DNA from: Eledone cirrhosa
Taxonomy: Eukaryota
NCBI GenBank assembly: GCA_964016885.1
Contig: OZ024753.1
Coordinates: 45,694,001-45,758,000, forward strand
Direction: 5' to 3'
DNA: 64,000 nt
Shown here: positions 55,895-57,729 of the stretch, in pieces
Numbering within the stretch: the first letter of the stretch is position 1
Layout: each line of letters opens with the position of its first letter
Made by a program: the position numbers and the translations under genes
The notes under the pieces: model-generated
Databases searched by the model: none
What the model saw: the letters and a program-made list of their open reading frames with translations, nothing else
Told to the model about the DNA's origin: nothing

Positions 55895-56070
55895 ACACTA
55901 CTACATGGAACTCTCTTTCAATACCCCTCTCTATATCAATTAATACCAAACTCTCCCCCTCTCTATATCTACTACATGGTCCTCTTTTTCAATGCTCCTC
56001 TCTATATCAATTAACACCAAACTCTCCCCCTCTCTATATCTACAACACGGAACCCGCTTTCAATATCCGT
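55895..56070 (-). repeat. GA-rich minisatellite family, inverted relative to 19625-19945
   Basis: Repeated ccctctctatatc core with alternating aattaa.accaaactct and tactacatgg spacers. Confidence 0.8.
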
Positions 56071-56135
56071 CTCGACAGTGTATATATATATATATACACT
56101 CGGACAGTGTATATATATCCTCATATACTCCACCA

Positions 56136-56726: not shown

Positions 56727-56795
<69 letters not shown>

Positions 56796-56900
56796 TGTAT
56801 ATATAGTGTATTTTGCAATACACTGTATGCTTAATTAAAAACATTTCGAAGACTTATGTTATTGTTTTAGAGTAGTGACAGACTCACTTACTTTAATTTT

Positions 56901-56985
56901 CAGCAAACAGGGGAGCTAAAGCTGACAGGGCCCTGTTTCGCATTTATTGATGCTTATCAAAGCCAACTACTCCTCCTGTTTGCTG
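56901..56985 (-). ncRNA. Type I hammerhead ribozyme (left-arm copy)
   Basis: Reverse complement reads cagcaaacaggaggagtagttggct-TTGATAA-gcat-caataa-atgc-GAAA-cagggccctg-TC-agctttagctcccctgtttgctg; stem III is palindromic. Confidence 0.75.
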
Positions 56986-57050
56986 CAATCATGGATGTTT
57001 GGTTCTTATAGAATTTTAATAAATAATCAGTAAGAACCAAACATCCATGA

Positions 57051-57141
57051 TTTCAGCAAACAGGAGGAGTAGTTGGCTTTGATAAGCATCAATAAATGCG
57101 AAACAGGACCCTGTCAGCTTTATCTCCCCTGTTTGCTGAAA
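57051..57141 (+). ncRNA. Type I hammerhead ribozyme (right-arm copy)
   Basis: Core UUGAUAA at 57079-57085 (U3:A8); stem II gcat/atgc with G10.1-C11.1; GAAA at 57100-57103; stem III cagg/cctg; GUC at 57113-57115. Stem I ggct/agct extends through ggag/ctcc to a 14-bp tttcagcaaacagg/cctgtttgctgaaa helix. Confidence 0.78.
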
Positions 57142-57269
57142 ATTAAAGTAAGTGAGTCTGTCACTACTCTAAAACAATAATGCGAAATGCTTTTAATGAA
57201 GCATACAGTGTATTGCAAAATACACTATATATACATTCATATATATATATAGCTATTTCAGAGCACCAA

Positions 57270-57315
<46 letters not shown>

Positions 57316-57392: not shown

Positions 57393-57395
<3 letters not shown>

Positions 57396-57670
57396 CAAAA
57401 GGGATATTCAATGTGTTGGTAATTCAACAAATATAAATGTTTATAACTGATTCAGAGCACTCGACAGTTTTTCAAATTGAAACTATATTTATAAATCCCT
57501 ATTTATTCTATTATATATATTTCAAGGGTACCAAAACTTTGGTACTTTGTCAACATTTATAAAACAAACTTTGTATTTTATCTGATGAGTCGTCCCAAAG
57601 TTGTGGTACCCTTGAAATATATATCATAGAATAAATATGGTTTTTATAAATATAGTTTCCATTTATTTAA
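57393..57670 (-). mobile_element. TA-embedded foldback element family G
   Basis: ~69-bp imperfect arms at 57474-57542 and 57595-57664; CTGATGAG at 57582 in the spacer; gagcactcga motif shared with the 61052 element. Confidence 0.75.
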
Positions 57671-57673
57671 TAT

Positions 57674-57729
<56 letters not shown>

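Follow-up and report, generated by a model that had tools for sequence, protein, structure and literature searches.

A palindromic hammerhead locus in Eledone cirrhosa as a probable inverted, 5'-truncated insertion of a 319-nt retrozyme-like repeat

The window, by which we mean the entire 64,000-nt stretch of Eledone cirrhosa DNA that was analyzed, carries at 56781..57276 a palindromic element set into (TA)n, each arm of which encodes a type I hammerhead ribozyme (Table 1). Positions within the element are numbered after a natural 319-nt unit (L025:1410-1728) of the repeat family to which it belongs. The original prediction described inverted arms of ~210 bp. Inverted arms are indeed present, spanning 159 nt at 96% identity without gaps (56859-57017 / 57022-57180) and ~220 nt if an 8-nt gap is allowed in the right arm, but they are unequal: the left arm covers unit positions 70-319, and the right arm covers 92-319 and then runs 25 nt into the next unit (92-344). 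The arms meet at 57030/57031 without inserted bases, and the apparent central loop of the palindrome is further left-arm sequence.

Table 1. Features of the palindromic insertion and its flanks (window coordinates)
Feature	Position	Strand	Details	Basis
(TA)n target, left flank	56733..56790	.	Untailed element end blends into it	sequence
Inverted arm	56781..57030	-	Unit positions 70-319, no tail; outer edge uncertain by ~10 nt within TA	
Type I hammerhead, left arm	56899..56987	-	U3 56960, A8 56955, G12 56939, C17 56924	
Left-arm part unpartnered in right arm	57009..57030	-	Unit positions 70-91; hairpin loop	
Direct arm	57031..57250	+	Unit positions 92-319; 8-nt deletion near 57181	
Type I hammerhead, right arm	57052..57140	+	U3 57079, G5 57081, A8 57084, G12 57100, C17 57115	
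Right-arm stem II	57086-57099	+		
Right-arm stem III	57103-57114	+	A15.1 at 57103	
25-nt tail	57251..57276	+	Next unit's positions 1-25; this end only	
(TA)n target, right flank	57277..57310	.		sequence

The presence of a complete hammerhead in each arm was borne out by a strict scan of the whole 64-kb window, in which helices I to III had to be paired and either C3-G8 or U3-A8 was required: exactly two matches were returned, one per arm. The core UUGAUAA with its U3-A8 pair, C17, and the predicted cleavage site after 57115 on the plus strand all lie where they had been placed, and the minus-strand cut is predicted after 56924. Stem III of the left arm is a perfect 12-nt palindrome; that of the right arm is not, its center being broken by a G-to-A change at 57108. 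A search with the Rfam models, proposed earlier as a check, matched Hammerhead_HH9 (RF02275) to both arms, but weakly, with 21.6 and 19.4 bits (E values of 0.042 and 0.21) against a gathering score of 52. The arms share with HH9 the type I topology, a similar stem II loop, and an internal loop in stem I, whereas even the better arm scores well below the gathering level; none of five family loci gave an Rfam hammerhead match at that level. Rfam miRNA matches in the window, all below their gathering scores, were rejected as artifacts of the long hairpin and (TA)n. Elsewhere in the window, three diverged 71-bp tandem copies occupy 55898-56073, and a second, unrelated inverted insertion with two alternative ends lies just downstream of the palindrome (57394-57677), again in (TA)n. 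This second insertion carries, near 57582-57625, a C3-G8 hammerhead-like motif of the minimal type and belongs to a repeat family with 3,450 first-look candidates in the genome; a diverged relative follows a Penelope-like element (PLE) reverse transcriptase (RT) fragment in L057.

The repeat family, which carries a likely self-cleaving RNA motif, has thousands of copies, and the palindrome is one of these rather than a unit in itself. The repeat unit is 319 nt long with 34% GC and is non-coding (longest ATG-started frame, 40 codons; longest stop-free frame in a doubled unit, 48 codons). In the 3.0-Gb genome searched, a 26-nt query comprising the core and stem II gave 527 exact matches, compared to 0 for a reversed control, so the hammerhead motif is not due to chance. 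A U3-A8 pattern of this spacing gave 2,878 matches (control, 5), and a C3-G8 pattern of the same spacing gave 154 (control, 1); descriptors restricted to C3-G8 would therefore miss the larger class. Most of the 154 C3-G8 matches (L160-L179) belong to another, older-looking repeat family without similarity to the 319-nt unit. In the 26-nt context itself, the C3-G8 version has no exact match in the genome, and allowing one mismatch retrieved 7 sequences, all with single changes (5 C3-A8 and 2 U3-G8). When the right arm was used as the query, 1,610 first-look candidates were obtained; among the 40 that were scored, the top copies are 92-94% identical, and many of the copies are spaced ~319 bp apart as tandem units. 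Tandem arrays of the family range from dimers to 17+-mers, and the window's copy lacks tandem ribozymes. Head-to-tail arrays of 17+ and 14+ full units at L182 and L183 (G000:C1:82.39 Mb and 93.46 Mb) are candidate source loci. A few low-depth contigs in a run labeled as another organism (X4) were not taken as evidence for the distribution of the family.

A 28-nt motif immediately downstream of the ribozyme has 662 exact matches, and the first 100 of them, all on contig C1, were used to survey insertion anatomy. The motif lies outside the ribozyme, and sampling thus did not select for it. The 85 fetched loci merged into 76 insertions, of which 60 were inverted by a loose count that included at least one spurious self-match (L109); a strict count, based on alignments of >60 nt with five stray segments dropped, gave 56 of 76. 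The complete ribozyme region occurs on both strands in 30 insertions, two ribozymes lie in tandem on one strand in 12, and no LTR-like layout was seen in the sampled insertions. Eight of the strictly inverted insertions have a cut end, leaving 48 with both ends intact. In 44 of these, one end carries a 25-28-nt tail and the other does not (binomial P of 7e-10 relative to random pairing); of the remaining four, three have no tail and one, a compound locus, has two. The tail/no-tail rule is strong but not absolute, and its four exceptions count against the insertion model that we favor below. The tail directly abuts (TA)n in 52 of the 76 insertions, the two fixed outer ends lie ~25-35 nt apart, and inversion junctions are scattered over unit positions 1-257. 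Element ends lie within (TA)n, where a target-site duplication, which is longer than 4 bp in non-LTR retrozymes that have one, is unreadable. The insertion signature of PLEs, namely an inverted 5'-truncated copy, a one-sided tail, and an AT-rich target, is found here. The window's copy is typical of family insertions, and its mirror-image form is likely a routine by-product of insertion.

Long inverted arms flanked by TA runs could also reflect a foldback or MITE-type DNA transposon with a hammerhead lying by chance in its terminal inverted repeats. Such elements have a fixed structure and identical termini, whereas arm lengths and junctions vary freely in this family, the outer ends differ in 44/48 intact copies, and direct tandem arrays exist. 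The asymmetric ends largely refute this origin, which we consider extremely improbable.

In the 52 insertions with overlapping arms, the arms of one insertion differ at 70 of 975 subfamily-diagnostic sites (7%), compared to 34% between insertions, and 8 of 118 rare variants are common to both arms, compared to 0.7% between insertions. At non-diagnostic sites, the arms of one insertion differ by 3.5%, close to the 3.8% seen between unrelated copies. The low diagnostic difference, combined with the 3.5% difference elsewhere, indicates that the two arms share a single source and have diverged after insertion. The idea that the arms derive from two different RNAs paired via stem III is unsupported, as 0 of 52 arm pairs clearly represent two subfamilies; the worst pairs disagree at 5/31 and 3/11 diagnostic sites.

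These comparisons bear on whether the palindrome is an element in its own right, as originally described, and specifically on whether it could be a selected two-ribozyme device in which self-cleavage is set against hairpin formation in transcripts of either strand. Such a device would account for the two intact cores in this copy and for the 30 insertions with a ribozyme on both strands. However, intact cores are normal anyway (81 of the 102 complete copies retain a fully intact core), inversion is usual, junctions are scattered, and the arms of one insertion have diverged like unrelated copies. Predicted folding also argues against it. In a nearest-neighbor model that leaves tertiary contacts uncounted, the active fold lies 1.7 kcal/mol above an alternative fold in the isolated right arm and 5.7 kcal/mol above it in the isolated left arm, a result that weighs against our preferred reading. 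For the right arm alone, predicted pairing is 0.91 for helix II, 0.08 for helix I, and 0.13 for helix III, and the stem III self-duplex is weakened in this arm (-13.4 versus -24.3 kcal/mol). Once the left arm is included, the pairing probability of helices I to III falls to 0.00 at three transcript lengths, and the hairpin of the whole palindrome is predicted at -344 kcal/mol, compared to about -36 for the ribozyme. These figures are equilibrium predictions rather than kinetics; nonetheless, a hairpin with a 22-nt loop should zip up as the sense arm emerges and is predicted to wipe out the ribozyme fold in this copy. The balanced contest between cleavage and hairpin formation that had been envisaged is unsupported by these predictions, and a two-ribozyme device is very unlikely. 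With one ribozyme per strand, no unit-length RNA would be released, and this copy, at a probably silent locus, would be a dead end. A read-through transcript would form a ~220-bp hairpin in which the ribozyme is hidden, and its only use would at most be as input to double-stranded-RNA pathways; inverted Penelope copies have been described as siRNA sources (PMC3681739). The locus itself is ordinary, representing a known kind of element and not a two-ribozyme switch.

The double change at positions 3 and 8 and the intact helices had been taken to suggest selection on catalysis in the source element. Among genomic copies, the core is not measurably conserved above its flanks: rare-variant rates are similar in the core (1.5%), stems (2.1-2.3%), and flanks (1.9%), and shared variants fall in 0 of 12 core columns versus 21 of 187 flank columns (P of 0.62). 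Single insertions decay about neutrally. A pair-level test on 100 copies (2 dropped) gave a clear signal for the fold, with variant pair types common to ≥5 copies keeping pairing in 12/13 cases and rare ones in 14/77 (P of 4e-7, which is optimistic as the copies are related). In a three-family alignment of 23 hand-picked copies, 96.4% of cells pair and 12 of 28 pairs change on both sides. Shuffles of this alignment reached 12 double-changed pairs in 43 of 500 cases and 77 cells in 0 of 500, and slid controls gave 0-3 pairs.

The 3-8 pair is U-A in 18 and C-G in 5 of these 23 copies. Sister family B (L180 and L201-L229), which is 78% identical, has C3-G8 at the homologous positions, with 25/29 cores exact, and sister family C (L230-L249) has U3-A8, with 20/20 cores exact. 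Families B and C are 86% identical to one another and 76-78% identical to the window's family; since B is closer to C, B may have reverted to C3-G8, although this relationship is unrooted. A tree with positions 3 and 8 masked (unrooted, no outgroup, and one row only of the third family) needs one change of the 3-8 pair (support of 94/80). Helix covariation across subfamilies, together with the C3-G8 sister family, suggests that source RNAs were likely selected for the fold. Selection in the source element is to this extent supported, for the ribozyme fold in the source lineage.

Stem III stays palindromic across subfamilies, including double changes within its loop. At stem III columns 168/171, which have poor pairing prospects in a monomer, 82 of 100 copies have GC, 8 have AT, and 5 have GT. 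A kept stem III palindrome would fit action as a dimer, a principle described for hammerheads (PMC4209133). We also considered whether U3 was favored for weakening a misfold; this was rejected, as the predicted gap shifted in opposite directions among subfamilies.

The reading of U3-A8 as a compensatory variant holds family-wide and has precedent in nature: natural U3-A8 hammerheads have been reported, with earlier in vitro activity cited (Perreault et al. 2011, PMC3088659). In a study that describes minimal hammerheads of the Schistosoma Cercyon PLE, ~1,300 U3-A8 minimal hammerheads were reported in Schistosoma mansoni, as were opposite-strand hammerhead pairs 100-700 bp apart (Cervera and de la Pena 2014, PMC4209133). 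The present family shows the same 3-8 covariation, but its ribozyme is unlike minimal hammerheads: stems II and III have 4 pairs each, stem II ends in a 6-nt loop, and stem I is long. It also differs in that homologous C3-G8 and U3-A8 families coexist, and these full-length ribozymes allow a natural rate comparison.

Judged by sequence features, the family fits the animal non-LTR retrozymes as a new member. Non-LTR retrozymes have been defined, and their circles shown in coral, mussel, and axolotl, by Cervera and de la Pena (2020, PMC7229834). As in those systems, a canonical type I hammerhead lies in each 150-450-bp, low-GC (<50%), non-coding tandem unit, copies number in the thousands, and autonomous PLEs reside in the same genome. 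Unlike them, the present family has a U3-A8 core in a full-length ribozyme and occurs mostly as inverted, tailed (TA)n insertions, an anatomy undescribed in the consulted portions of PMC7229834 and the 2026 preprint cited below. Craig et al. (2021, PMC8557442) reported inversion, a one-sided 30-40-nt tail, and (TA)n bias for PLEs, as well as algal PLEs that are non-autonomous. The present insertions resemble these in 5'-truncation, partial tandems, an adjacent inverted copy, a tail at one end, and a (TA)n/AT-rich target; they differ in lacking an RT/GIY-YIG open reading frame (ORF) and in a tail that extends 25-28 nt past the unit boundary (25-35 nt between end classes) rather than 30-40 nt. 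U3-A8 has been published before, as have opposite-strand hammerhead pairs and tailed inversions. We found no description of the 319-nt family or of retrozyme tail/inversion anatomy in a literature search that covered the main texts of mostly open-access papers.

We conclude that the palindrome is very probably a single inverted, 5'-truncated insertion of a 319-nt U3-A8-hammerhead repeat, likely a non-LTR retrozyme placed in a (TA)n target by Penelope-like enzymes. The earlier suggestion of a Penelope-like or retrozyme source thus gains support from the tandem non-coding units, the inverted insertions, the one-sided tail, and (TA)n. Under this model, tandem source copies would be transcribed, and the hammerhead would cut the tandem RNA into units, likely aided by pairing of two palindromic stem IIIs. 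Unit RNAs may then circularize. Predicted circular folds of 4 units are more stable than those of shuffles (z of -4.7 to -6.9), with the ribozyme stem contributing much of the difference. A borrowed RT/GIY-YIG protein would nick both (TA)n DNA strands, each strand being primed at one of two RNA start sites, and the two cDNAs would end at random points before joining head to head. The genome encodes RT + GIY-YIG ORFs of 574-727 aa. For PAc in vitro, both target strands were cut and extended and two internal RT start sites defined the tail, but hammerhead mutants did not impair insertion (PMC11167929), which counts against the role given to the ribozyme here, as does the lack of cleavage in 8/9 Xenopus retrozyme dimers (Li et al. 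2026, bioRxiv 10.64898/2026.07.22.740005).

A more specific reading, plausible but held tentatively and at somewhat less than even confidence, is that the inverted copies preserve traces of past Penelope-type double priming on a single small ribozyme RNA, either circular or tandem. Priming of both (TA)n strands would start at two fixed positions, which lie ~140 and ~170 nt downstream of the cut; one stretch would be copied twice and the halves then joined. If true, the thousands of copies of a 319-nt template would give direct proof from structure that Penelope-like proteins carry animal retrozymes, and they would provide a minimal substrate for how PLE proteins make inversions and tails. A switch of the 3-8 core pair between U-A and C-G would also have taken place within this single lineage. 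Li et al. (2026) tied retrozymes to PLE terminal repeats, with cleavage in 1/9 dimers, and argued their passenger proposal from co-occurrence and trees; the word "tail" does not appear in that preprint. The family described here contributes evidence from insertion anatomy to the view of animal retrozymes as non-autonomous PLE passengers and offers a short template for testing inversions and tails made by PLE proteins.

Alternatively, the 319-nt unit could be the terminal repeat of an undiscovered autonomous PLE, with its copies being ordinary 5'-truncated ends that lack an independent small-RNA cycle. In its favor, the insertions have the anatomy known from PLEs (PMC8557442), the majority of PLE insertions are 5'-truncated, and Xenopus retrozymes match pLTRs (bioRxiv 10.64898/2026.07.22.740005). 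In the sampled insertions, however, including the 17+ arrays, what lies upstream of a unit is another unit and not an ORF, and the ribozyme is full-length rather than of the minimal type usual in metazoan PLEs (PMC4209133). PLE coding matches (L001-L124, L160-L199, and L200-L249), where inspected, are separated from the unit by (TA)n or interrupted, and none of those inspected is continuous with it, across a few hundred of several thousand copies. We consider this alternative unlikely and retain the retrozyme insertion as the preferred explanation. It counts against the latter that 6 endonuclease-downstream regions and 26 loci of the commonest PLE family yielded no autonomous element whose terminal repeat is related to the unit. 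In local alignments to those 6 regions and the neighboring palindrome, the scores of three unit types equaled or only marginally exceeded the top score of 30 shuffles, and among the 26 other loci of the commonest PLE family, none has the unit next to the ORF. The RT + GIY-YIG ORF between terminal repeats that identifies an autonomous PLE is absent from the 319-nt repeat.

Two sets of candidate parents were rejected. The GIY-YIG fragment in L004 (Pfam GIY-YIG E value of 0.0036, below the cut-off) lies beside copies of the repeat but is part of an abundant PLE family whose own 3' end is different, and the repeat interrupts it. The PLE fragments close to other copies come from several families and are either set apart by (TA)n or interrupted. 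At L123:5826-9843 (G000:C3), a ~1.5-1.8-kb block made up of a PLE endonuclease fragment and repeat copies is present in three tandem copies. The terminal repeat of the abundant autonomous PLE family at L155:4170-4310 (G000:C5) contains, by eye, an apparent hammerhead-like motif in which position 4 is C, helix II is ~90 nt long, and stem III is palindromic.
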